Below are positions 5,440 to 64,000 of a stretch of 64,000 nt of DNA, piece after piece. Numbering within the stretch: the stretch's first letter is position 1; each line of letters opens with the position of its first letter. The notes beneath the pieces were generated by a model. The model made no database searches. It saw nothing but the letters and a program-made list of their open reading frames with translations, and was not told where the DNA came from. Origin of the DNA: an uncultured Omnitrophica bacterium (GTDB lineage Bacteria; Omnitrophota; Gorgyraeia; JACQQV01). A program made the position numbers and the translations under genes. Location of the stretch: the NCBI GenBank assembly GCA_947085655.1, contig CAMTXH010000010.1:18015-82014 (forward strand), given 5' to 3'.

Positions 5440-6297
5440 TTAACCCTTCACCAAAAAATTATCAATCAGGCGTGTTTTGCCGACCCAAGCCGCAATCGCC
5501 AAAAGAACTTTCCCCTTCACCCGTTTCATCGTCTCAAGTGTCTCGGGATCGACGACGGAGACATAGTCCACCCGCCGCACGCCCCTTTCCCGCAAAAGAG
5601 CGCGCATGCGTGAGAGTATCTTTTGAGGATTCTTTTCACCGTCCCGGATCATCCTTTTCCCCAAAAAGAGCGCTTGCGACAGAGAAAGCGCTTTTTTCCT
5701 TTCCCCGTCGGATAAATAGCGGTTCCGTGAACTCATCGCAAGCCCGTTTTTCTCCCTCACCGTCGGCATCACCCTCATGGCGATCGGAAGGTCGAGGTCT
5801 TTCAATAACTGAGCAATCACCTGTGTCTGCTGATAATCTTTCTGACCGAAATAAACGCGGTCGGGTTGGACGAGGTTGAAAAGTTTTGCACAAACCGTGG
5901 CCACCCCCCGGAAATGACCGGGGCGGAATTTTCCGCAGAGCGGTTCGGAAACCGGGCCGACGTCGATCTCGGTCGCAAAAAGGTCCGGGTAGATTGTTTT
6001 GACCGAGGGGAAAAAAAGAAGATCGACCCTCTCTTTTTGAAGGAGGGCGCGATCTTTGGAAAAAACCCTCGGATAACGCTGGAAATCCTCGTTGGGACCG
6101 AATTGCGTCGGATTCACGAAAATGCTCACCACGACGCGGTCGCATTCCTTGCGCGCGGCACGGACCAGGGAAAGGTGCCCCTCGTGAAGCGCTCCCATCG
6201 TCGGGACAAACCCGATCGTCTCGCCCCGTTTTCTATACCTTTTCAACTGTGACCTCAAGGGGGTAAGGCCTCGGAGGACGCGCATCGGTTGACACAC
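5440..6297 (-). CDS. panC: pantoate--beta-alanine ligase
   Basis: [34 protein letters not shown]. Confidence 0.92.
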
Positions 6298-6772
6298 ACT
6301 CCGCCAAAAGTTCCTTGATGCTCTTTTTCAATTTCGGGTGAAAGAGCGTCTCGCACAATTCCGAAAGGGGCAAAAGGACAAAGATCCGCTCGTGGAGCCG
6401 CGGATGGGGAAGAATCAGCGACGGTTCCTCGACGACCAGATCCCCGTAAAAGAGAAGATCCAGATCGATCTCCCTCGGTCCCCATCGCTCCCGAGGAGTC
6501 CGCCCGACTTCATGCTCAATCGTCTTTAACGCGGTCAAAAGGGCCTCGGGTGTAAGGGAACTCTCCCCTTCCACCACGCCGTTCAGAAAAGGCCTCTGGT
6601 CCCGGACCCCGACCGGCTCCGTCTCATAGAAACGGGAAATCCGCTTTAACCGGAAACCCTGCATTTCTCGGAGAAACTGAATCGTCCGCTTCAGATGCTT
6701 TTCCCGGTCACCCACATTGGTGCCGAGGCCGATAAAGGTCCTTACCCGAGCAGTTTTCGAAAGCGCGCACAC
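6233..6772 (-). CDS. folK: 2-amino-4-hydroxy-6-hydroxymethyldihydropteridine pyrophosphokinase
   Basis: IGLGTNVGDRE...YETEPVG...QRPFLNGVV...WGPREIDLDLLFYGD (HPPK signature). Confidence 0.88.
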   Translation of the reverse strand: MCALSKTARVRTFIGLGTNVGDREKHLKRTIQFLREMQGFRLKRISRFYETEPVGVRDQRPFLNGVVEGESSLTPEALLTALKTIEHEVGRTPRERWGPREIDLDLLFYGDLVVEEPSLILPHPRLHERIFVLLPLSELCETLFHPKLKKSIKELLAECVSTDARPPRPYPLEVTVEKV

Positions 6773-7917
6773 GCTTCCTGAATCCTTCTCTTCGGAAGGG
6801 TCAGTGCCATCCGGATGTATCCTTCTCCGGAAGGGCCGAACCCGACGCCGGGTGTGACAACGATTCCCGCTTTTTCAAACACCCACCGGGCAAAATCGCT
6901 TGAAGAGCGTTTCCGCGCCGGAATAGGTGCCCAGACATAAAAAGTGGCGCGCGGAGCCGGAACGTTCCAGCCGAGTCGGTTCAGTCCCTCGACGAGGGAA
7001 TCCCGCCGCTCTTCATAAAGGCGGTTCCGGAATGCCAAAAGCCGGCTCGGAAGACGAAGCGCTGCAATCCCTGCATGTTGAACCGCCTGAAAAATCCCCG
7101 AATCGACATTCGCCTTGACCTTGGCGAGCGCTGCGATCATCTCCCGACGGCCGCAGGCAAATCCGATTCGCCAGCCGGTCATGTTGTACGTCTTCGAAAG
7201 CGAATGAAACTCGATTCCGACCGCCTTGGCCCCGGGTCGTTGGAGGAAACTGATCGGCCGATACCCGTCGAAGCTGACTTCGGTGTACGCGGCGTCATGA
7301 CATATCATTATACGGTGCCGACGACAAAAGTCAATAGTCTCGTCGAAAAAAGAGGCATCGGCGCAGGCGGCGGTGGGGTTATTCGGATAGTTCAAAAAAA
7401 GGAGTTTGGCCCGCCTCAGCGTCGAGCGCGAAAGACGGGAGAAATCGGGCAGGAAGCCGTTCTCCTCGAGGAGCGGTAGATTCACCACTTCTCCGCCGGC
7501 AAAGTGCGTTCCGCTCCGGTAAGGAGGGTAGCAGGGATCCGGCACAAGGACCGCCTCCTTCGGGTTGATAAGCCCAAGGGGAAGATGGGCAATTCCCTCC
7601 TTGGAACCGAGAAGGGGGAGGATCTCCTTTTGAGGGTCCAAGGTCACCCCAAAGCGCCTTTTGTACCATAGGGCAATTTCCCGACGGAGAGACGGAAGCC
7701 CCTGATCCAGGGCATACCGGTGATTTGCCGGGTCTCTGGCAGCGCGGCTCAAGGCAGAGATCACCGATGGGGGTGTCGGCAGGTCCGGATCTCCGACGCC
7801 AAGATCGATAATATCCCTCCCGGCCGCTTTCGCCTTCCTTTTGGCAGCGTCGAGTTCGGCGAATAAATAAGGGGGGAGTTTCTGAAGACGTTCAGAAAAA
7901 TGAACAGAAAAACTCAT
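6742..7917 (-). CDS. class I PLP-dependent aminotransferase, probably LL-diaminopimelate aminotransferase (DapL-like)
   Basis: LPPYLFAELD...IDLGVGDPDLPTP...YNMTGWRIGF (PLP-lysine region). Sits directly after dapF-dapA-dapB with no dapD/dapE/dapC nearby. Confidence 0.6.
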   Translation of the reverse strand: MSFSVHFSERLQKLPPYLFAELDAAKRKAKAAGRDIIDLGVGDPDLPTPPSVISALSRAARDPANHRYALDQGLPSLRREIALWYKRRFGVTLDPQKEILPLLGSKEGIAHLPLGLINPKEAVLVPDPCYPPYRSGTHFAGGEVVNLPLLEENGFLPDFSRLSRSTLRRAKLLFLNYPNNPTAACADASFFDETIDFCRRHRIMICHDAAYTEVSFDGYRPISFLQRPGAKAVGIEFHSLSKTYNMTGWRIGFACGRREMIAALAKVKANVDSGIFQAVQHAGIAALRLPSRLLAFRNRLYEERRDSLVEGLNRLGWNVPAPRATFYVWAPIPARKRSSSDFARWVFEKAGIVVTPGVGFGPSGEGYIRMALTLPKRRIQEACARFRKLLG

Positions 7918-52178: not shown

Positions 52179-53284
52179 ATCACCTCCCAGAAGCGTCGGA
52201 GGGTGCGAATGACCCGCTCTCGGTCCGTTCGGGTCAGTTCCGGATACATCGGAAGAGAGAGAACTTCTCTTGAGGCCCGCTCGCTTTCCGGGAAATCGCC
52301 CCGGCGGTATCCCAGCGAAGAAAGGGCTTTCTGCAGATGAAGCGGAACAGGATAATGAAGGCCTGTCTCAATTCCCTGCTTGAGGAGAAACTGCCGGAGC
52401 CGTCCGCGCTCCCTTGTCCGGATGACAAAGAGGTGATAGACGTGGTGTCTTGCCGGTAACTCCTCCGGCAGTCTCAAGGGGAGTCCCCGAAGCCCCTTCC
52501 GGTAGAATGCGGCATGACGGCGGCGGAGAAGATTCCAACGCCGGAGGTGTTTCAGTTTGATCCGGAGGACCGCTGCCTGGAGTTCATCCATCCTCCCGTT
52601 CCAACCGGGAAAGACGTGCTGATATTTTGTCAAAGCGCCGTGGTCTCGAAGGAGTCTCACTTTTTCGGCCAGGCGCCGGTCACGGGTCACTACCATTCCC
52701 CCCTCGCCGTAACCGCCAAGATTTTTGGAGGGATAAAAACTGAAGCAGCCGACTTTCCCGAGCGACCCGATTCGCCTCCCCCGGTACAGAGCCCCATGCG
52801 CCTGGGCAGCGTCTTCGACGACCGGAATCCCGGTGGCTCTGGAAACGCGAAGGAGCGGCGTCATGTCGCACGGCTGACCGTAGAGATGGACCGGGAGAAA
52901 CGCCCTGGTCCGGCGGTTCGTCTTCCTTTTGACCTGAGATATATCCATGGTATAGGTGGCCGGGTCGATATCCACGAAAACAGGCGTTGCCCCTGTCTGA
53001 AGAATCGCTTCGACGGTGCCGATGAAGGTAAATGGGACGGTGATGACCTCATCCCCCTCCTTAATTCCGAGTCCCCGCAGGGCCAAGTGGAGTGCTTCTG
53101 TTCCGGAGCCGACCGACACCGCATAAGGAACGCCGCAAAAAGCGCCGAAGGCCTCCTCGAATTTCCGGATGTTCGGGCCGTCGATGAGGTGCATCCCGCG
53201 GAAAATGTCCCGAAAGGAAGAAATCACTTCTTTCGCGAGAGGACGATATTGCGCTTTTAAATCAACGAGGGGAATCCGTTTCAC
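52175..53284 (-). CDS. DegT/DnrJ/EryC1/StrS-family sugar aminotransferase
   Basis: AVSVGSGTEALHLAL...FSFYPSKNLGGYGEGGMVVT (PLP-lysine region). Confidence 0.85.
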   Translation of the reverse strand: MKRIPLVDLKAQYRPLAKEVISSFRDIFRGMHLIDGPNIRKFEEAFGAFCGVPYAVSVGSGTEALHLALRGLGIKEGDEVITVPFTFIGTVEAILQTGATPVFVDIDPATYTMDISQVKRKTNRRTRAFLPVHLYGQPCDMTPLLRVSRATGIPVVEDAAQAHGALYRGRRIGSLGKVGCFSFYPSKNLGGYGEGGMVVTRDRRLAEKVRLLRDHGALTKYQHVFPGWNGRMDELQAAVLRIKLKHLRRWNLLRRRHAAFYRKGLRGLPLRLPEELPARHHVYHLFVIRTRERGRLRQFLLKQGIETGLHYPVPLHLQKALSSLGYRRGDFPESERASREVLSLPMYPELTRTDRERVIRTLRRFWEVI

Positions 53285-54393
53285 TGTTGCCTGAGTCCCC
53301 GCTTGAGGAGTTCCTGATCCGCCTTTTCAGACAGATCCTTTGCCTTCTGGGTCTCTCCCCATGAGACAAGATCCTTCAGGCCGTCCCGGAGACTCCATCT
53401 GGGAGTATATCCCAGAGACACGAGCCGGGAAATATCCGCAAAACAGTGCCGGATATCCCCGGAGCGGTATTTCCCAACAACCTGCGGCCGGACAGGAGAC
53501 TGATAGAGATGGATGAGGGTATTTGCGATTTCAAGAATGGAGGTCGCTTTGCCGCTTCCCACGTTGAACGTGCCGTAATCCGCTTTTGGGCTTCCCATGA
53601 CCAGAAGATTCGCCCGCACCACATCTTCGACATGGACAAAGTCCCGGCTCTGAAGACCGTCTTCATAAACAAGGGGCGGCCGGCGGTTTTTAATCCGGCT
53701 TGAAAAAATGGCGCAGACCCCCGTGTACGGATTGGAAAGAGCCTGCCGGGGGCCGTACGCATTGAAATAGCGGAGGGCCGCGACCGGAAGATGATAGGTC
53801 CTCCCGATAAGAAGAGACATCTCTTCTTGGTGACGCTTGGACATGGCATAAATCGAAGTCGGATCGAGCGGCTTGGATTCATCCGTCTGGACGGGGCGTG
53901 CCGGTGTTTTACATTGGGGACAGAGGATTTCCCACTTTTTGATCAAAAGCTGTCTTTCGCTCCGAGACGGGGGGGCAATCAATCCGCATTTGGAACAGCG
54001 GTATCGTCCCTCACCGTAAAGACTCATGGAACTGGCCACAATCAGTTTTTTCACCTTCGTCTTTTCACGGACCAGAAGGTCAAGAAGCAGGGCCGTTCCC
54101 TGGGTATTCACCTCCACATAATCGGCCACCTCATACATCGACTGGCCCACGCCGACGGCGGCCGCCTCATGAAAAACGACGTCGCTCGGCTTAAGAACTT
54201 TTTTAAGCGCGTTCCGGTCCCGGACATCCCCTTTGACATATTGCGCCCCCTTGTTGAGATAATCCGGCCGTTTCTTGCCGTGCACCTGGGGCACAAAATC
54301 ATCATAGACCGTCACCGAGTGCCCCTTCGCAACGAGGGCATCGACCAAATGCGAGCCGATGAACCCGGCACCGCCTGTCACGAGAATCTTCAT
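53281..54393 (-). CDS. NAD-dependent epimerase/dehydratase (SDR) with an internal Cys4 zinc-ribbon insertion
   Basis: [15 protein letters not shown]; Y-x3-K (YAMSK); CSKCG...CPQCKTP inserted in the substrate-binding half. Confidence 0.7.
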   Translation of the reverse strand: MKILVTGGAGFIGSHLVDALVAKGHSVTVYDDFVPQVHGKKRPDYLNKGAQYVKGDVRDRNALKKVLKPSDVVFHEAAAVGVGQSMYEVADYVEVNTQGTALLLDLLVREKTKVKKLIVASSMSLYGEGRYRCSKCGLIAPPSRSERQLLIKKWEILCPQCKTPARPVQTDESKPLDPTSIYAMSKRHQEEMSLLIGRTYHLPVAALRYFNAYGPRQALSNPYTGVCAIFSSRIKNRRPPLVYEDGLQSRDFVHVEDVVRANLLVMGSPKADYGTFNVGSGKATSILEIANTLIHLYQSPVRPQVVGKYRSGDIRHCFADISRLVSLGYTPRWSLRDGLKDLVSWGETQKAKDLSEKADQELLKRGLRQQ

Positions 54394-58087: not shown

Positions 58088-59392
58088 TTATAACCTCACA
58101 ACCTTCGCGCCTTTTCCCTTCACATGCCGAAGCGCGTTCCGCGTGTCAAAGATGAGGGAACTTTTCTCATAGAGAAACTGGTAATCTATTTTGTGGTCCG
58201 TGACAATCAACACGCAGTCGGACTGCTTCAGCGCAGTATCCGTCAGTGGCAACGATTTCATCTCGCCGTCATCCGTTCTGAGAAGAGGGACATACGGATC
58301 ATGGTAAAAGGGGATGGCACCCCGCTCCTTTAAAAGTTTGATAATTTCAATGGCGGGAGACTCCCGCACATCGTTCACATCCCCCTTGTAGGAAACCCCC
58401 AAAATCAGAATACGGGATCCCCGCAGGGGTTTTTGAACATCGTTCAAAATCTCCGTTGTCCGCTCCACCACATGGCGCGGCATGGCGGCATTGATCTGGG
58501 TGGCGAGTTCGATAAAACGGACTTCAAAACCCTGGATCCTCGCTTTCCACAAAAGATAAATCGGGTCGATCGGGATACAGTGACCTCCCAACCCCGGGCC
58601 GGGATAGAACGGCATGAACCCAAACGGCTTTGTCTTCGCCGCCTCAATCACTTCCCAAACATCGATTCCCAGATGATGGCACATGAGGGCCAGTTCATTG
58701 ACAAGGGCAATGTTGACTCCCCGGAAGGTATTCTCAAGAAGCTTCACCATCTCCGCCACCCGGGGACTCGAAACAGCTACGACCTCTGCAATCAACTGCT
58801 CGTACAGGAGCTTCCCCAAAGCCGAGCACCTTTCCGTCACTCCCCCGACGACTTTCGGGATATTTTCCGTATGATAGGTTGGGTTTCCGGGATCGACCCT
58901 CTCGGGAGAAAAACAGAGGCAGAAATCCTTTCCCGCCTTTAAGCCCCCCTCCTCAAGAAGCGGGAGAATCACCTCCTCCGTTGTCCCCGGATAGGTGGTG
59001 CTCTCCAGAATAATGAGTTGACCGGCGTGAAGATGGGATGCCAGACTCTGGACAGCCGAGATGATAAAAGAGAGATCCGGATCCTTGCTTTTCCGCAAGG
59101 GGGTTGGGACGCAGATGATGACAACATCCGCATCCTTTCCGCTTTCGTAATTGGATGTGACTTTGAAACGATTCTTCTGCATCACGTCCTTCAGGGCCTC
59201 TGAAGAAACGTCGAGAATGTGGGATTCTCCCTTTTGAATCCCGGAAACCTTTTTTTCATCCAGATCAATCCCGACCACCGGAAATCCCTTTTTTGAAAAC
59301 CCGACTGCCAGCGGGAGTCCGACGTAACCCAAGCCGATAACGGCGACAGTCGCCTGTTTGGTCCGAATTTTCTCTTCCAAAGCTTCTTTCAT
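58088..59392 (-). CDS. nucleotide-sugar 6-dehydrogenase, UDP-N-acetyl-hexosamine dehydrogenase (WbpA/TviB/Cap5O) type
   Basis: start set at MKEALEEK (GGAGG SD); VIGLGYVGLPLAVGF; catalytic GLGGHCIPIDP (the GGHCIP variant typical of UDP-HexNAc dehydrogenases, versus GGSCFPKD in Ugd). Confidence 0.8.
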   Translation of the reverse strand: MKEALEEKIRTKQATVAVIGLGYVGLPLAVGFSKKGFPVVGIDLDEKKVSGIQKGESHILDVSSEALKDVMQKNRFKVTSNYESGKDADVVIICVPTPLRKSKDPDLSFIISAVQSLASHLHAGQLIILESTTYPGTTEEVILPLLEEGGLKAGKDFCLCFSPERVDPGNPTYHTENIPKVVGGVTERCSALGKLLYEQLIAEVVAVSSPRVAEMVKLLENTFRGVNIALVNELALMCHHLGIDVWEVIEAAKTKPFGFMPFYPGPGLGGHCIPIDPIYLLWKARIQGFEVRFIELATQINAAMPRHVVERTTEILNDVQKPLRGSRILILGVSYKGDVNDVRESPAIEIIKLLKERGAIPFYHDPYVPLLRTDDGEMKSLPLTDTALKQSDCVLIVTDHKIDYQFLYEKSSLIFDTRNALRHVKGKGAKVVRL

Positions 59393-59393
59393 C

Positions 59394-60347
59394 TCAAACT
59401 CTTTCCCTCCAATAATCGAGAAGGTCCTCCAGTGTTTTTGAAAACGGAATTTCCGGCTTCCATCCGGTGAGTTTCCTGAACTTCGTACTGTCCCCCACAA
59501 GACGCATGACATCGCTGGGCCGCATTCGCTTCGGGTCCCTCCGAATTTTCACCTTGACCCTCGCTTTGCTGAGAAGGAGATTCAGCATCTGGCCGATGGA
59601 GTAGTCCCTGCCGGTGCAGATATTGTAGACGTCTCCCTTTTTTCCCTTCTCCAGGGCGAGCCAATAGGCCCGGACCACATCCCGGACATCGGTGAAATCC
59701 CGCCGTGGGATAAGGTTTCCCACATGAAGAACCGGTTCTTGCAGACCTTTTTCAATCCTGGCAATCTGTTTGGCAAAGTTACTCGTCGCAAAAACTTCGC
59801 CCCGGCGGGGCCCCGAATGATTAAACGCCCGTGTCCGGACGACGTAAAGTCCGTAACTCTGGTAATACTGATAGGCGAGGAGATCCTGGCCTACTTTTGA
59901 GACGCCGTAAGGGCTCAAAGGTCGCAGAGGATTGGTTTCCTTGATCGGAAGTTCACTTTTTCGGACGATTCCGTATTCCTCGGAGGACCCTGCGATATGG
60001 ATTCTCGGTTTCAATTTCAACTCCCGGACCGCTTCGAAAATATTCAATTGCCCGATGATATTGGTGGTGAGAGTTTCGGCCGGGGCCGACCAGGAAGTGG
60101 GAACAAAAGACTGGGCCGCGAGGTGAAAAATCCGGTCCGGCTTCACCTTTCGAATCACTTCCTGAACGGAAGAAGCATCGCGGATATCACAATAGTGCAG
60201 ACGGATTTTGTCCTTGAACTCAACGACGTTATCCTCCTTGCTCCGCCACCGCTCGATCCCGTAGACAGCGATATTCTTCTTCGCCAAGACAAACTCTGCT
60301 AAATGACTCCCTACAAACCCCGTGATGCCGGTGATGAGTACTCTCAC
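59394..60347 (-). CDS. GDP-4-keto-6-deoxy-D-mannose reductase (Rmd)-like / Gmd-family SDR; GTG start
   Basis: (V)RVLITGITGFVGSHLAEFVL...; start placed at the GTG whose last two bases overlap the rmlD TGA (GTGA); the ORF-track ATG would overlap rmlD by 76 nt. Confidence 0.65.
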   Translation of the reverse strand: MRVLITGITGFVGSHLAEFVLAKKNIAVYGIERWRSKEDNVVEFKDKIRLHYCDIRDASSVQEVIRKVKPDRIFHLAAQSFVPTSWSAPAETLTTNIIGQLNIFEAVRELKLKPRIHIAGSSEEYGIVRKSELPIKETNPLRPLSPYGVSKVGQDLLAYQYYQSYGLYVVRTRAFNHSGPRRGEVFATSNFAKQIARIEKGLQEPVLHVGNLIPRRDFTDVRDVVRAYWLALEKGKKGDVYNICTGRDYSIGQMLNLLLSKARVKVKIRRDPKRMRPSDVMRLVGDSTKFRKLTGWKPEIPFSKTLEDLLDYWRERV

Positions 60348-61264
60348 GATGCTCCCTGTGGCCTGTTGGAATGTATCAAGTGCTGTTCGTTGAGATAATC
60401 CCGAAGCGCCTCCCGCCATGGCCGGAGGGAACTCCCCAAAACCCTGGAAAACTTGTCGCAGTTTAACACCGTTCGAAGAGGCCTTTTTGCCGCAAGACCC
60501 AAAGTCCCCAATGAGATCGGGCGCAGGGGGATATGCCCCGCCCCCCCAAGGGCGAGAATTTCCCGCCCGTATTCAAGCCAACTGCAGCCGCCTCCGCCGC
60601 TTGCAATGTGATAAACGCCCGGAGGGATTTCTTTCTCAAAAAGAGAATAAATGGCGTTGGCAAGATCCGGTGTGTAGGTGGGGATACTCCATTTATCTTC
60701 AACCAGGGAAATCTCTTTTTTCGTCTTTGACCAACCCAAGACGTGGTGAACGAAAGAATCGTGGCCTTCTCCAAAAAGCCAACTTGTCCGGATAATCCAG
60801 TGACGCGGGTATTTCCGGGAATGCATTTCCCCTTCAAGCTTCGACTTTCCGTAAACGTTGACAGGTCGGCACGGGTCCTCCTCACGGTAGGGTTGGGGCC
60901 TTTCTCCCTCAAAAACGTAATCGGTGCTGATATAGCAGAAAGGAACGTTTTGCTGACGGGAAACCTCTGCCAAAAACCGCGTCCCTTCCCCATTCACCTG
61001 ATGGGCCTCCTCGGCGTGCCTTTCACAGTAGTCCACATCGCTGATGGCCGCCGGATGAATCACTGCATCCGGCCGGAGAGATCCAATGATTTTTCCGATT
61101 TCCCGTGAATCCGTAATGTCGGCCTCAAAGCGCTTCTCTCCTTCAAAAGGAGGGCGGATTTTCCTCCCCCGCGACAGACCGTAAAGTTCGTGCCCTTTCG
61201 CAAGAATTCGCCGGGAAAGAGAGGTTCCGAGCATGCCGGTAATGCCCGTTACGAGGAATCTCAT
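60344..61264 (-). CDS. rfbD: dTDP-4-dehydrorhamnose reductase
   Basis: start set at MRFLVTGITGMLG (ATGA overlap); YISTDYVFEGE...YGKSKLEGE. Confidence 0.85.
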   Translation of the reverse strand: MRFLVTGITGMLGTSLSRRILAKGHELYGLSRGRKIRPPFEGEKRFEADITDSREIGKIIGSLRPDAVIHPAAISDVDYCERHAEEAHQVNGEGTRFLAEVSRQQNVPFCYISTDYVFEGERPQPYREEDPCRPVNVYGKSKLEGEMHSRKYPRHWIIRTSWLFGEGHDSFVHHVLGWSKTKKEISLVEDKWSIPTYTPDLANAIYSLFEKEIPPGVYHIASGGGGCSWLEYGREILALGGAGHIPLRPISLGTLGLAAKRPLRTVLNCDKFSRVLGSSLRPWREALRDYLNEQHLIHSNRPQGAS

Positions 61265-63366
61265 CCCCTTTCCCCGTACTGAATCTGGTAATATTCCTGA
61301 AAATCCTTCCGTTTCTTTTTTAGACGCTGCCACCACGCCTCATGGCTCTGGTACCACTGAACCGTCTCCTTGAGTGCATCCACAAAAGAGTGGCGCGGTT
61401 GCCATCCGAGCGATCGGATCTTCGTGGCATCCACGGCGTAACGGCGGTCATGACCCGGCCGGTCTTTGACAAAATCGACCAAACTTTCCGGTTTCCCGAG
61501 GATTTTGAGAATGGCCAGGGTCATCACTTTATTCGAAATTTGCTCCCCCGTTCCGACATTGTAAATTTCGCCTTCTTTTCCCTTTTTCCAGACGGTGTCT
61601 AGGGCCTCGCAGTGGTCCAGGACATAAATCCACTCCCGGACGTTTAAACCGTCTCCATAGAGAGGAAGCGTTCGGTCCTCAATCGCATTAGTGATGAATA
61701 AGGAAACCAGTTTTTCCGGGTACTGATAAGGGCCAAAGTTATTGGTACAACGCGTAATGACCACAGGCAGTTTGTAAGTTTTGTGATACGCGAGAATCAG
61801 AAGATCCGCCGCCGCTTTTGTCGCCGAATAGGGGCTGCTTGGATTGAGGGGACTTTCCTCATTAAAAACCCCTTTTTCGATGCTTCCGTAGACCTCATCG
61901 GTGTTGCCACAGAAATCGAACCTTCCATTTCTCTCGACGAGGAAATTCTTGTTGTCTTTAACCTTTAAACACCAAATATTCCCTTTATAATTAACCCTTT
62001 TGTTTCTGTGCCGGCTGATTGATTTGGCAGTATTGGCTACAAAAACATAATACGATTTACCCTCAATCTTTCTCCCGTTCAATGAAGATGCCGTATGTCT
62101 CGAATGGATGCTTGGCTTAAGATTTAATTTGATGCAAAGTTCGCAGACATCAGAAACTAATTTTTCTGAAACGGTATGATATATCTTGCCGTTGTGGCCA
62201 TCTGAGTCCATGAGCCCTTCTAATAAAGAGGTCAGATATTCTGGTGAGTAATCTAATGCCCATTGCGGAATGCGCTTATGATGGGCTCCTTGCCCGCATT
62301 GGGCAAAAAAATCCATAAGCGTTTTTGAAGAAAAATATAAATGGGTCCCCGCCTTACCGCTATGACAGCGATAGTCTATCCCTAAACGGCTTAGAGTCTC
62401 CTTTACTCTCTTGCGACATTTATCGCTCTCTGGAATATCTAGAAACATTCTATAACTGTGGCATGTGGTTACATGGTTGCCTAACTTCTCTATTGTTTTG
62501 AACTCGCCGCTTTGTTCATCTCTCGCTTTCTCAAGATACTCGCTCCTTGGGAGGCCTGTCATCGTTTCCCGCTTCTTCTCTTGATACGCAATAAAACCGT
62601 CTCCGATAAAAATACCCAAAAGGTACATGAGATCTTTTGTCTTAACACGGCCGTAATCCTTTAGATCGATATACTCCTCCTTCTTGCCTCTCCAATAAAC
62701 CTCAGGCAGATAAAAAATACTCCTTTTTGAGACTTCCTCTGCTGTTTCAACGAGCAATCTCTTCTTGGTTGTGTCAAGGATAAACATGTTATGGTTTGGT
62801 GTGACGCATAAATCGACACGCTTGTTTTTAAAATGAATCATCTCGCCCTCGTAAGGTTGGATGATCACTTTTTCTATCGGCTTAAGTTCTATTTCTTTTG
62901 TTACAGGATTTAGTGAGAAAACAAGGTCTCCTTCTTTTAATTCCTTGTATGTTTTCAGTCCTTCAGGTGTCACAGCTCTTGTCTGTTCATCGTAACAACT
63001 AACATGAATAAAACGATTCAGACTATATTTCTTCGCTGCTTCTAACAAAACATGGGTTCCGACGATATTGGTCATCACAAAGTCCTCGGCTTTCAGGATA
63101 GATCGGTCAACGTGGGTCTGTGCCGCAAAGTTGAAAAGAGCGGTGCATCCCTTCATCGTCCTTTCGACCGTTTTGGGATCGCAGATTTCCCCCTGGATGA
63201 AGGTGTAATGGGGGTTCTTTTCGAGATCGGCCAGATTTTCTCGATTTCCGCTGTAGGTCTCTTTGTCCAAATTGACCAGGTGGAGATCCGGATACCGCTT
63301 GAGGAGGAAACGGATAAAATTGGAGCCGATGAAACCGAGCCCCCCGGTCACTAAAATTTTTTTCAT
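61261..63366 (-). CDS. rfbB: dTDP-glucose 4,6-dehydratase interrupted in-frame by a 365-aa intein (mature extein about 336 aa)
   Basis: N-extein MKKILVTGGLGFIGSNF...NRFIHVS(123) | intein | C-extein TDEVYGSI...YSATKAAADLL...NNFGPYQYPEKL (213 aa); the STDEVYG catalytic motif is split between S and T. Confidence 0.85.
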   Translation of the reverse strand: MKKILVTGGLGFIGSNFIRFLLKRYPDLHLVNLDKETYSGNRENLADLEKNPHYTFIQGEICDPKTVERTMKGCTALFNFAAQTHVDRSILKAEDFVMTNIVGTHVLLEAAKKYSLNRFIHVSCYDEQTRAVTPEGLKTYKELKEGDLVFSLNPVTKEIELKPIEKVIIQPYEGEMIHFKNKRVDLCVTPNHNMFILDTTKKRLLVETAEEVSKRSIFYLPEVYWRGKKEEYIDLKDYGRVKTKDLMYLLGIFIGDGFIAYQEKKRETMTGLPRSEYLEKARDEQSGEFKTIEKLGNHVTTCHSYRMFLDIPESDKCRKRVKETLSRLGIDYRCHSGKAGTHLYFSSKTLMDFFAQCGQGAHHKRIPQWALDYSPEYLTSLLEGLMDSDGHNGKIYHTVSEKLVSDVCELCIKLNLKPSIHSRHTASSLNGRKIEGKSYYVFVANTAKSISRHRNKRVNYKGNIWCLKVKDNKNFLVERNGRFDFCGNTDEVYGSIEKGVFNEESPLNPSSPYSATKAAADLLILAYHKTYKLPVVITRCTNNFGPYQYPEKLVSLFITNAIEDRTLPLYGDGLNVREWIYVLDHCEALDTVWKKGKEGEIYNVGTGEQISNKVMTLAILKILGKPESLVDFVKDRPGHDRRYAVDATKIRSLGWQPRHSFVDALKETVQWYQSHEAWWQRLKKKRKDFQEYYQIQYGERG
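61903..62997 (-). mobile_element. intein with LAGLIDADG homing-endonuclease domain inside rmlB
   Basis: Cys1 (CYDEQTRAVTPEG, block A); TPNHNMF (block B, TxxH); two LAGLIDADG motifs (LLGIFIGDGF; LLEGLMDSDGH); block F NIWCLKVKDNKNFLVERNG; terminal ...FCGN followed by the +1 Thr; visibly lower GC than the flanking extein. Confidence 0.8.
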
Positions 63367-64000
63367 CTTTTCCTCAACTTTTCCGCAACCAGCTGATTTG
63401 CCCGGAAGAGCGATTCAAACGTCCCTGAGTCCGACCACCATCCCTCTAGGATGCCGTAGGTCATTTCTCCCTTCCGGATGTAGGCGTTATTGACATCCGT
63501 GATCTCAAGCTCTCCGCGAGCGGATGGTTTTAACGGGCGAATGATATCGAATACATGACCGTCGTACATATACACCCCTGTGACGATATAGTTGGATTTT
63601 GGTTTTTTCGGTTTTTCCTCAATCCGGGCCAATCTCCCGTTTTTAATCTCAGCCACACCAAACCTCTGGGGATCTTCCGCCTCTTTGAGCAGAATGCGTC
63701 CCCCCTTTTTCTGATTCCGGAATATATCAACTTCCTTTTGGATTCCTTTCTCCAGGATGTTGTCCCCCAAAATCACGACGATTTTCTCGCCGTTTGAAAA
63801 ATGCTCCGCCAACGACAGGGCATCGGCAATCCCGCCCTCCCCTTTCTGGTAGGCGTAGTGGATCTCCTTAAGCCCAAAGGCCTTTCCATCTCCGAGAAGT
63901 CTCAAAAAATCACCGGCGTTATTCCCTCCGGTCACGAGGAGAATGTCTCGGATGCCAGCTTCTACAAGTGTTTGGATCGGATAATAAATCATCGGTTTGT
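63363..64000 (-). CDS. rfbA: glucose-1-phosphate thymidylyltransferase, 5' end beyond the window
   Basis: internal ...PMIYYPIQTL...ILGDN...RGELEITDVNNAYI; the N-terminal G-x-G-T-R-L part lies beyond 64000. Confidence 0.85.
   Translation of the reverse strand, partial: KPMIYYPIQTLVEAGIRDILLVTGGNNAGDFLRLLGDGKAFGLKEIHYAYQKGEGGIADALSLAEHFSNGEKIVVILGDNILEKGIQKEVDIFRNQKKGGRILLKEAEDPQRFGVAEIKNGRLARIEEKPKKPKSNYIVTGVYMYDGHVFDIIRPLKPSARGELEITDVNNAYIRKGEMTYGILEGWWSDSGTFESLFRANQLVAEKLRKR

Follow-up and report, generated by a model that had tools for sequence, protein, structure and literature searches.

A predicted bifunctional LAGLIDADG intein at the catalytic threonine of dTDP-glucose 4,6-dehydratase in an uncultured Omnitrophota bacterium

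How an enzyme can be made from a gene that is interrupted in the middle of its active-site motif is the question raised by the rmlB locus of an uncultured Omnitrophica bacterium (GTDB lineage Bacteria; Omnitrophota; Gorgyraeia; JACQQV01). We analyzed a stretch of 64,000 nucleotides from this organism (assembly GCA_947085655.1, contig CAMTXH010000010.1, positions 18,015 to 82,014 of the forward strand), referred to here as the window, in which rmlB, the gene for dTDP-glucose 4,6-dehydratase, is a 701-aa open reading frame (ORF). An earlier note, made from the sequence alone, had resolved this ORF into a 336-aa RmlB and an in-frame 365-aa insert, and had interpreted the insert as a full-length LAGLIDADG intein. 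The lengths and coordinates proved correct, and we conclude with high confidence that the insert is a genuine full-length intein. It is very probably bifunctional, consisting of a Hint splicing domain in which a double-motif LAGLIDADG endonuclease is nested, and it is located right before the Thr of the catalytic triad.

The host gene is recognizable as rmlB on both sides of the insert. The ORF matches the TIGR01181 equivalog for dTDP-glucose 4,6-dehydratase with 425.2 bits against a cutoff of 365.1, in two stretches that are interrupted at the insert, and the Pfam Epimerase and GDP_Man_Dehyd matches to the 701-aa ORF are likewise split. Removal of the insert yields a 336-aa RmlB that aligns without a gap across VSTDEVYGS to the solved RmlB structures 6bi4 (E = 1.7e-113) and 2hun (E = 4.8e-107); the predicted spliced-junction peptide is ...FIHVSTDEVYGSIEK. 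The GxxGxxG Rossmann motif (GGLGFIGS) and the Yx3K motif (YSATK) are both present, and Thr-Asp-Glu occupies extein residues 124-126. In the published signature of dTDP/UDP-glucose 4,6-dehydratases, [ST]DE...Yx3K, the Ser or Thr is the triad residue, the Asp the acid and the Glu the base (PMC8987622). The +1 residue of the intein is therefore the catalytic-triad Thr of RmlB, as had been proposed. The gene belongs to an operon of the order rmlC-rmlA-rmlB-rmlD with overlapping stop and start codons, in which rmlB is translationally coupled: its start codon shares an ATGA with the stop codon of rmlA, and its stop codon shares another with the start codon of rmlD. The operon is part of a ~16-kb glycan-synthesis cluster; the segment around it is ordinary chromosome, with genes for UvrA, PriA and PGK.

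The insert separates Ser123 from the Thr of S/TDEVYG (a slash marks an intein-extein junction here and below). It begins with CYDEQT and ends with FDFCGN, followed by TDEVYG, both junctions are in exact frame, and the ORF runs through the intein with no frameshift and no stop. All of the motifs quoted in the earlier note are present, including TPNH, LLGIFIGDG, LLEGLMDSDG, a block-F-like NIWCLKVKDNKNFLVE and a terminal Asn followed by Thr. Among the residues of the C-terminal blocks are Trp342 and Cys343 (positions F:3 and F:4), Cys363 (position G:5), the penultimate Gly364 and Asn365. The base composition of the insert also differs from its surroundings. The GC content estimated earlier for the insert, roughly 40%, is borne out (0.406), while the roughly 58% given for the host is too high, with values of 0.532 for the window, 0.469 for the N-extein and 0.50 for the C-extein; the contrast is real but smaller. 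At third codon positions, GC is 0.43 in the intein and 0.59 and 0.58 in the exteins.

Profile and structure comparisons assign a fold to this segment. The Pfam profile LAGLIDADG_3 (PF14528) matches the insert with 27.5 bits against a cutoff of 22.5, and its NCBIfam matches are to intein-bearing archaeal RpoA'', PolII, RFC, Tes and RtcB. Sequence comparison to chains in the PDB gave marginal matches only (PI-PkoII, E = 0.012; KlbA intein, 0.086), so structure prediction and Foldseek were needed to settle the fold. A model predicted with AlphaFold2 (AF2) from an alignment of 31 homologues has a predicted local distance difference test score (pLDDT) of 94.5 and a predicted template modeling score (pTM) of 0.89. 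The top 16 Foldseek matches of this model in the PDB are all endonuclease-containing inteins, led by TliVMA (7qsu, E = 5e-16), PI-PkoII (2cw7), PI-PfuI (1dq3), PhoVMA (7qst) and PI-SceI; next in rank comes I-DmoI, a free-standing LAGLIDADG enzyme, with a target-normalized TM-score of 0.6-0.69. The domains and motifs are listed in Table 1. No other intein was found among ten further ORFs of the window that were scanned, which included the longest ones (UvrA, PriA, a TPR glycosyltransferase and similar).

Table 1. Coordinates, within the window, of the rmlB precursor, its predicted intein and the adjoining features
Feature	Position	Strand	Details
Predicted intein, 365 aa, Cys1 to Asn365	61903..62997	(-)	ORF residues 124-488
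N-terminal Hint subdomain, intein 1-104	62686..62997	(-)	block A Cys1; AF2 secondary structure
Block B, V-T66-P-N-H69	62791..62802 (TPNH)	(-)	within N-terminal Hint subdomain
LAGLIDADG homing-endonuclease domain, intein 105-325	62023..62685	(-)	LAGLIDADG_3 profile; Foldseek matches to I-DmoI
LAGLIDADG motif 1, LLGIFIGDG	62596..62622	(-)	catalytic Asp133
LAGLIDADG motif 2, LLEGLMDSDG	62197..62226	(-)	Asp264 and Asp266
C-terminal Hint subdomain, intein 326-365	61903..62022	(-)	blocks F and G, NIWCLKVKDNKNFLVERNGRFDFCGN
rmlB precursor ORF	61261..63366	(-)	701 aa and stop; TIGR01181, 425 bits
N-extein, RmlB residues 1-123	62998..63366	(-)	Rossmann motif GGLGFIGS; ends ...RFIHVS; profile match split around insert
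C-extein, RmlB residues 124-336 and stop	61261..61902	(-)	starts with catalytic Thr-Asp-Glu (TDEVYG); contains YSATK (Yx3K)
Putative co-conversion tract, last 60 nt of N-extein, THVLLEAAKKYSLNRFIHVS	62998..63057	(-)	includes -1 Ser codon AGT
rmlA, glucose-1-phosphate thymidylyltransferase	63363..64000	(-)	upstream operon partner; 5' end beyond window edge
rmlD, dTDP-4-dehydrorhamnose reductase	60344..61264	(-)	downstream operon partner; TIGR01214, 242 bits against cutoff 224

RmlB is encoded without this segment in the closest relatives of the host gene. Lengths range from 318 to 355 aa among the best 120 homologues of the spliced extein; the closest are 66-74% identical to it, and those that bear names are from Omnitrophota. 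Three loci (L052-L054) share the gene order of the window, GT4-rmlC-rmlA-rmlB-rmlD-epimerase-UDP-glucose dehydrogenase, and have an intein-free rmlB of 336 aa; these syntenic relatives with an empty site are probably Omnitrophota. A different gene of the cluster is interrupted in L052, where the neighboring UDP-glucose/ManNAc dehydrogenase (5948..7011) is 918 aa long and matches Intein_splicing and LAGLIDADG_3. Its orthologue in the window (58088..59512, minus strand) carries no intein, so the gene of this glycan cluster that harbors an intein varies between related genomes.

The intein itself has relatives in many lineages and in several unrelated proteins. Used alone as a query, it retrieves RmlB-like proteins of WS2, Omnitrophota and Staskawiczbacteria that carry this element at the identical position, and further family members in NAD+ synthase (NadE), NrdD, a DUF5131 protein, a sugar C-methyltransferase and a papain-like peptidase. 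Species-representative genomes were also scanned with the intein and the flanks of 50 loci were read. An intein at the RmlB site of the window, S/C...[CS]GN/TDEV[YF]G, is present at 22 of the 50 loci, in at least 22 genomes, which answers the earlier suggestion to look for the same insertion site elsewhere. Its distribution is sporadic across phyla. The bacterial carriers belong to Actinomycetota, Clostridia, Planctomycetia, NPL-UPA2/WS2, Omnitrophota, Patescibacteria and Gammaproteobacteria, and the archaeal carriers to Methanosarcinales, Diapherotrites, an Asgard archaeon, Thermoplasmata and Altarchaeum; these names refer to metagenome-assembled genomes (MAGs). At further loci, the family occupies the homologous residue of other extended short-chain dehydrogenases/reductases (SDRs), at TNK[VI]YG, TDK[AS]VNP and SSEMFG, and at ~20 loci it lies in NadE at GYF/TKYGDG. 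The carriers at the NadE site are both archaea and bacteria, among them Archaeoglobaceae, Nitrososphaerota, Thermoplasmata, Anaerolineae, Omnitrophota and Bipolaricaulota, and the GC content of their inteins follows that of the host, up to 0.63.

The family is also large. In an exhaustive HMMER search of 1.84 billion representatives, with clustering at 50% identity, it comprised 209 clusters at E<=1e-30 and 3195 at E<=1e-10. Among 52 pattern-parsed matches, the junction was of the TDE type in 14, and most of the others were SDR types (SSE, SDK, TDK, STS) or NadE. Members are found on IMG/VR viral contigs of up to 154 kb as well, in GMD-like genes (between YQA and STSEM or STSEL) and in SSEVYG SDR genes, with the same WC...[CST]GN ends; the RmlB (TDEVYG) allele was not seen among the family members on these viral contigs. 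Large viruses are possible vectors of the intein's spread. The family has probably remained unannotated because its members always score below the Pfam threshold for inteins: every member tested reached 21-32 bits with Intein_splicing, for which the gathering score is 35.8, and automated annotation does not flag them as intein-containing. The record names of the public homologues, from dozens of MAGs, accordingly mention the dehydratase, and none mentions an intein.

Several individual members and sites illustrate the range of states in which the family occurs. A metagenomic sequence, P0031, has a mini-intein of ~195 aa with a deleted endonuclease domain at the same site (S/TDEVFG), and in another, P0030, the first ~94 intein residues are fused straight to the RmlB C-terminus; both suggest stages of decay within the homing cycle or, for P0030, mis-assembly. 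Between 'Candidatus Psychracetigena formicireducens' (WS2) and 'candidate division NPL-UPA2 bacterium Unc8', the intein shows 100% identity, which indicates either one lineage with two names or a very recent transfer. Within the window, a GMD/LegB-like SDR (59394..60419, minus strand) contains ...HIAG/SSEEYG..., an unoccupied version of a family site that is filled by sister inteins in P0210 and P0250 (QIAG/C...GN/SSEEYG). A further SDR of the window, a 370-aa extended-SDR epimerase (53281..54393, minus strand), shows a profile gap of ~40 aa that was considered as an intein remnant. This candidate was rejected, since the gap corresponds to a zinc-ribbon-like CxxC...CxxC insertion, GRYRCSKCGLIAPP...ILCPQCKTPARP, after SSMSLYG, a few residues off the position of the RmlB intein.

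We counted residue conservation over 49 members of the intein family. Cys1, Thr66, His69, Asp133, Gly364 and Asn365 are each kept in all 49, as are Trp342 and Cys343 at block F positions 3 and 4, the members in NadE included, and the motif 2 aspartate Asp266 is kept in 46. Position G:5 is Cys in 38 members, Ser in 9 and Thr in 2, position B:12 is Met in 45, and nearly every member is followed by Thr or Ser at +1. In the HMMER alignment, the IWCL of the intein stands against IYDL of the KlbA intein and VYDL of PI-PkoII, and Cys343 therefore sits at the position of the F:4 Asp. This Cys and the penultimate Gly are two non-canonical features that had not been picked up earlier.

These features have to be set against the conclusion that the intein can splice. 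A penultimate His and a block F Asp are common among inteins, if not obligatory, and in E. coli a penultimate Gly is reported to keep the Chlamydomonas ClpP intein from splicing. Both of the usual assisting residues (PMC7765530, PMC2807308) are missing from the window intein, in which F:4 is Cys343 and the penultimate residue Gly364. The match to Pfam Intein_splicing (PF14890), moreover, reaches 30.6 bits (E = 3.5e-7) and stays below the gathering score. The presence of both Gly364 and Cys343 in all 49 relatives, including those in the unrelated host NadE, argues that splicing in this family tolerates them. We regard the window intein as probably competent for splicing, with somewhat less confidence than we have in its identity as an intein; our confidence in a present endonuclease activity, and in the homing scenario discussed below, is lower again.

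The alternative that fares best is one in which the intein splices by a non-canonical or regulated route, Cys343 being joined by Cys1 and Cys363 in a second thioester relay or a redox disulfide trap. In class 3 inteins, the F:4 Cys is the initiating nucleophile and forms a Cys-His-Thr triad with B:10 and G:5; it is central, placed between both junctions, redox-sensitive and a possible redox toggle (PMC2807308, PMC7664689, PMC6195587). The class 3 inteins MP-Be DnaB and Msm/Mch DnaBi1 (WCT) have in common with the window family this F:4 Cys, a hydroxyl or thiol residue at G:5, a His at B:10 and a Thr or Ser at +1, and the alignment with KlbA and PI-PkoII, the invariant Trp342-Cys343 and the Cys, Ser or Thr at G:5 of all 49 members agree with a role of this kind. 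Membership in class 3, to which the F:4 Cys had pointed, was nevertheless rejected. This class is defined by the lack of Cys, Ser or Thr at intein position 1 (PMC2807308), whereas the window family has an invariant Cys1 and a TxxH, Met rather than Trp at B:12, and a penultimate Gly; it therefore falls outside the definition, with a WCT triplet that is partial. Given the invariant class 1 residues, we consider non-canonical or regulated splicing unlikely, though it deserves more weight than any other alternative, and a relay or redox role for Cys343 is in our view a minority hypothesis. Slightly less probable still is the broader proposition of an undescribed clade, characterized by Cys1, TxxH, Trp-Cys at F:3-4 and a [Cys/Ser/Thr]-Gly-Asn end, in which the F:4 Cys would be functional. 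Such a clade might be specialized on the catalytic Ser/Thr of SDRs (RmlB, GMD, UXS-like and PseB/CapD-like enzymes, plus a few other enzymes), and its Cys343 might serve as a second thioester relay, in an intermediate between class 1 and class 3, or in a Cys1-Cys343 disulfide switch. If either role of Cys343 were true, the maturation of a cell-surface sugar enzyme would be conditional on redox state. On its present residues, we treat the window intein as a putative class 1 intein with an unusual assisting set.

It is much less likely that the intein is dead by descent, with Gly364 and Cys343 precluding splicing, rmlB a pseudogene and any rhamnose made through another gene. The missing assisting residues and the low Intein_splicing score would fit such a history, and a second rmlB might lie outside the visible 64 kb. 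Nevertheless, the same two residues are shared by relatives from many phyla and host proteins, the ORF is intact, both exteins carry all RmlB signatures in a protein that passes the equivalog cutoff, and the gene is translationally coupled within its operon. The coding sequence of the family is, in addition, under purifying selection in both parts: the ratio of nonsynonymous to synonymous differences per site (pN/pS) is 0.11-0.21 for the Hint domain, with 0.12-0.21 in the less saturated family pairs, and 0.20-0.27 for the endonuclease.

That the 365 residues are instead a native accessory domain or a fusion retained in an RmlB subfamily, as the many database entries named simply dTDP-glucose 4,6-dehydratase could suggest, is hardly credible for a segment that interrupts the catalytic S-T-D-E motif, folds like an intein and bears intein motifs, recurs in NadE, NrdD, DUF5131 and methyltransferase proteins, and is lacking from the closest orthologues with identical synteny. 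A metagenome assembly or binning chimera, conceivable for a MAG in which insert and flanks differ in GC, has equally little to recommend it, given the exact frame at both junctions, the same architecture in at least 22 other genomes, and the recovery of an identical 701-aa protein from three contigs, the longest of 164 kb, in independent NCBI and Logan assemblies (one of them CAYJWX010000003.1 of MAG GCA_964374045.1), from which we conclude that the insertion is not an assembly artifact.

Returning to the intein as a mobile element, its horizontal spread, which had been suggested from base composition, is supported by the sporadic cross-phylum distribution and by comparison of inteins with exteins. 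In the 12 closest intein-bearing alleles, the intein is 62-77% identical to that of the window, and thus more similar than the exteins (45-64%). At the DNA level, the spliced gene as a whole is closer to the syntenic relatives with an empty site (0.69) than to the intein-bearing alleles (0.60). The last 60 nt upstream of the intein show the opposite affinity: they are identical at 49/60 positions to L002 and at 44/60 to L003, both intein-bearing, and at 25/60 to the empty-site loci L052 and L053. The encoded residues KKYSLNR resemble KKYSLDR of L002. Serine at -1 is encoded by AGT or AGC in the window and in every close allele that bears the intein, and by TCA in the empty-site relatives, so that the reconstructed site of the window reads ...GTTAGT/ACCGATGAGGT... 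and the empty site of L052 and L053 ...ATCTCA/ACSGATGAAGT.... No comparable tract was seen downstream of the intein in the comparison of the window gene. This mosaic upstream flank suggests that the intein was gained by homing with co-conversion.

Two considerations limit this picture. Because the tract was delimited after inspection of the data, its binomial P values (1e-5, 3e-4) are optimistic and indicative only. Between the window intein and its nearest relatives, synonymous differences have reached saturation (pS ~0.76-0.83), so that pN/pS values for pairs with the window are bounds only and the transfer of the intein was not recent. At 0.41, the GC content of the window intein exceeds the 0.29-0.35 of its closest relatives, and together with the saturation this indicates an acquisition old enough for partial amelioration. 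Purifying selection and the conserved LAGLIDADG aspartates fit an endonuclease that is still in use. Site-specific cutting of the empty allele would likewise find indirect support in the pN/pS of this domain, in the scattered occurrence of the intein and in the upstream tract.

We propose that translation of rmlB gives a 701-aa precursor, and that in this form the dehydratase active site would be physically split. Cys1, possibly spring-loaded by Thr66 and His69, would undergo an N-S acyl shift at the Ser123-Cys124 bond. The N-extein might then be received by trans-esterification on the hydroxyl of the +1 Thr, which is RmlB's own catalytic Thr. Cyclization of Asn365 would free an intein of ~42 kDa, and an O-N shift could remake the peptide bond, leading to the normal 336-aa RmlB (VS-TDEVYG). 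The free intein might act as a site-specific endonuclease that cuts intein-less rmlB at the conserved ...AGT/ACNGAYGARGT... and is copied into the cut allele through repair. By such a process, the host lineage could have gained the intein from a distantly related donor allele, along with ~50-60 nt of upstream extein sequence. Assuming that the genome holds no second rmlB, the supply of dTDP-rhamnose from this operon would depend on protein splicing.

The architecture of the window intein, with a Hint domain and a two-motif LAGLIDADG endonuclease, is that of the solved archaeal and yeast endonuclease-containing inteins PI-PfuI (1dq3), PI-PkoII (2cw7), Tli/Pho VMA (7qsu/7qst) and PI-SceI (1vde). 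These inteins are its best structural matches (Foldseek E 5e-16 to 1e-12), share its Cys1, TxxH and terminal Asn, and are, like it, inserted at the catalytic motif of a conserved enzyme. The window intein differs in being only 11-16% identical to them, in its host, which is a sugar-nucleotide SDR and not a replication or ATPase protein, in the F:4 Cys and penultimate Gly where they have Asp and His, and in its length of 365 aa, with no extra DNA-recognition region. The intein of UDP-glucose dehydrogenase from Methanocaldococcus jannaschii (InBase 'Mja UDP GD') also resides in a nucleotide-sugar enzyme, of a different host family and at a different site; it had been named as the classic example and is still the one cited (PMC2874743). 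Much closer counterparts exist among public MAGs and metagenomes, such as a 'dTDP-glucose 4,6-dehydratase 2' of WS2 (P0001/L005) and the Actinomycetota locus L002. These have an intein at the same S/TDEV[YF]G site with the same WC...[CS]GN residues and 44-77% identity to that of the window, in other lineages and with exteins that are 43-64% identical.

In line with the earlier statement that no RmlB intein had been described, the searchable literature yielded no account of an intein in RmlB or other SDR sugar-nucleotide enzymes; the alleles are nonetheless public, if unannotated. Such hosts are not mentioned in the main text of the Novikova 2016 survey, nor in the Anaeramoeba intein paper, and literature matches that pair intein with rmlB or rfbB were coincidental. 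The type of element is thoroughly known. What appears to be new is the insertion site or allele; the clade to which it belongs is under-recognised and marked by conserved residues of an atypical kind.

Inteins are concentrated in proteins of replication, repair and nucleotide metabolism. An intein at the catalytic Thr of a cell-envelope sugar enzyme broadens this known host range, and it exposes a sizeable family that is missed by standard Pfam thresholds and invisible in present annotation. Protein engineering may also gain from the family a compact intein that is Thr+1-compatible. With an invariant Cys at F:4 and Gly at the penultimate position, the family is a natural setting in which to ask which of the residues called 'conserved' in inteins are required. 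Finally, with the same Ser/Thr site of the SDR triad targeted in several paralogous families and on viral contigs, these inteins are a good system in which to study how endonucleases jump between paralogous targets.

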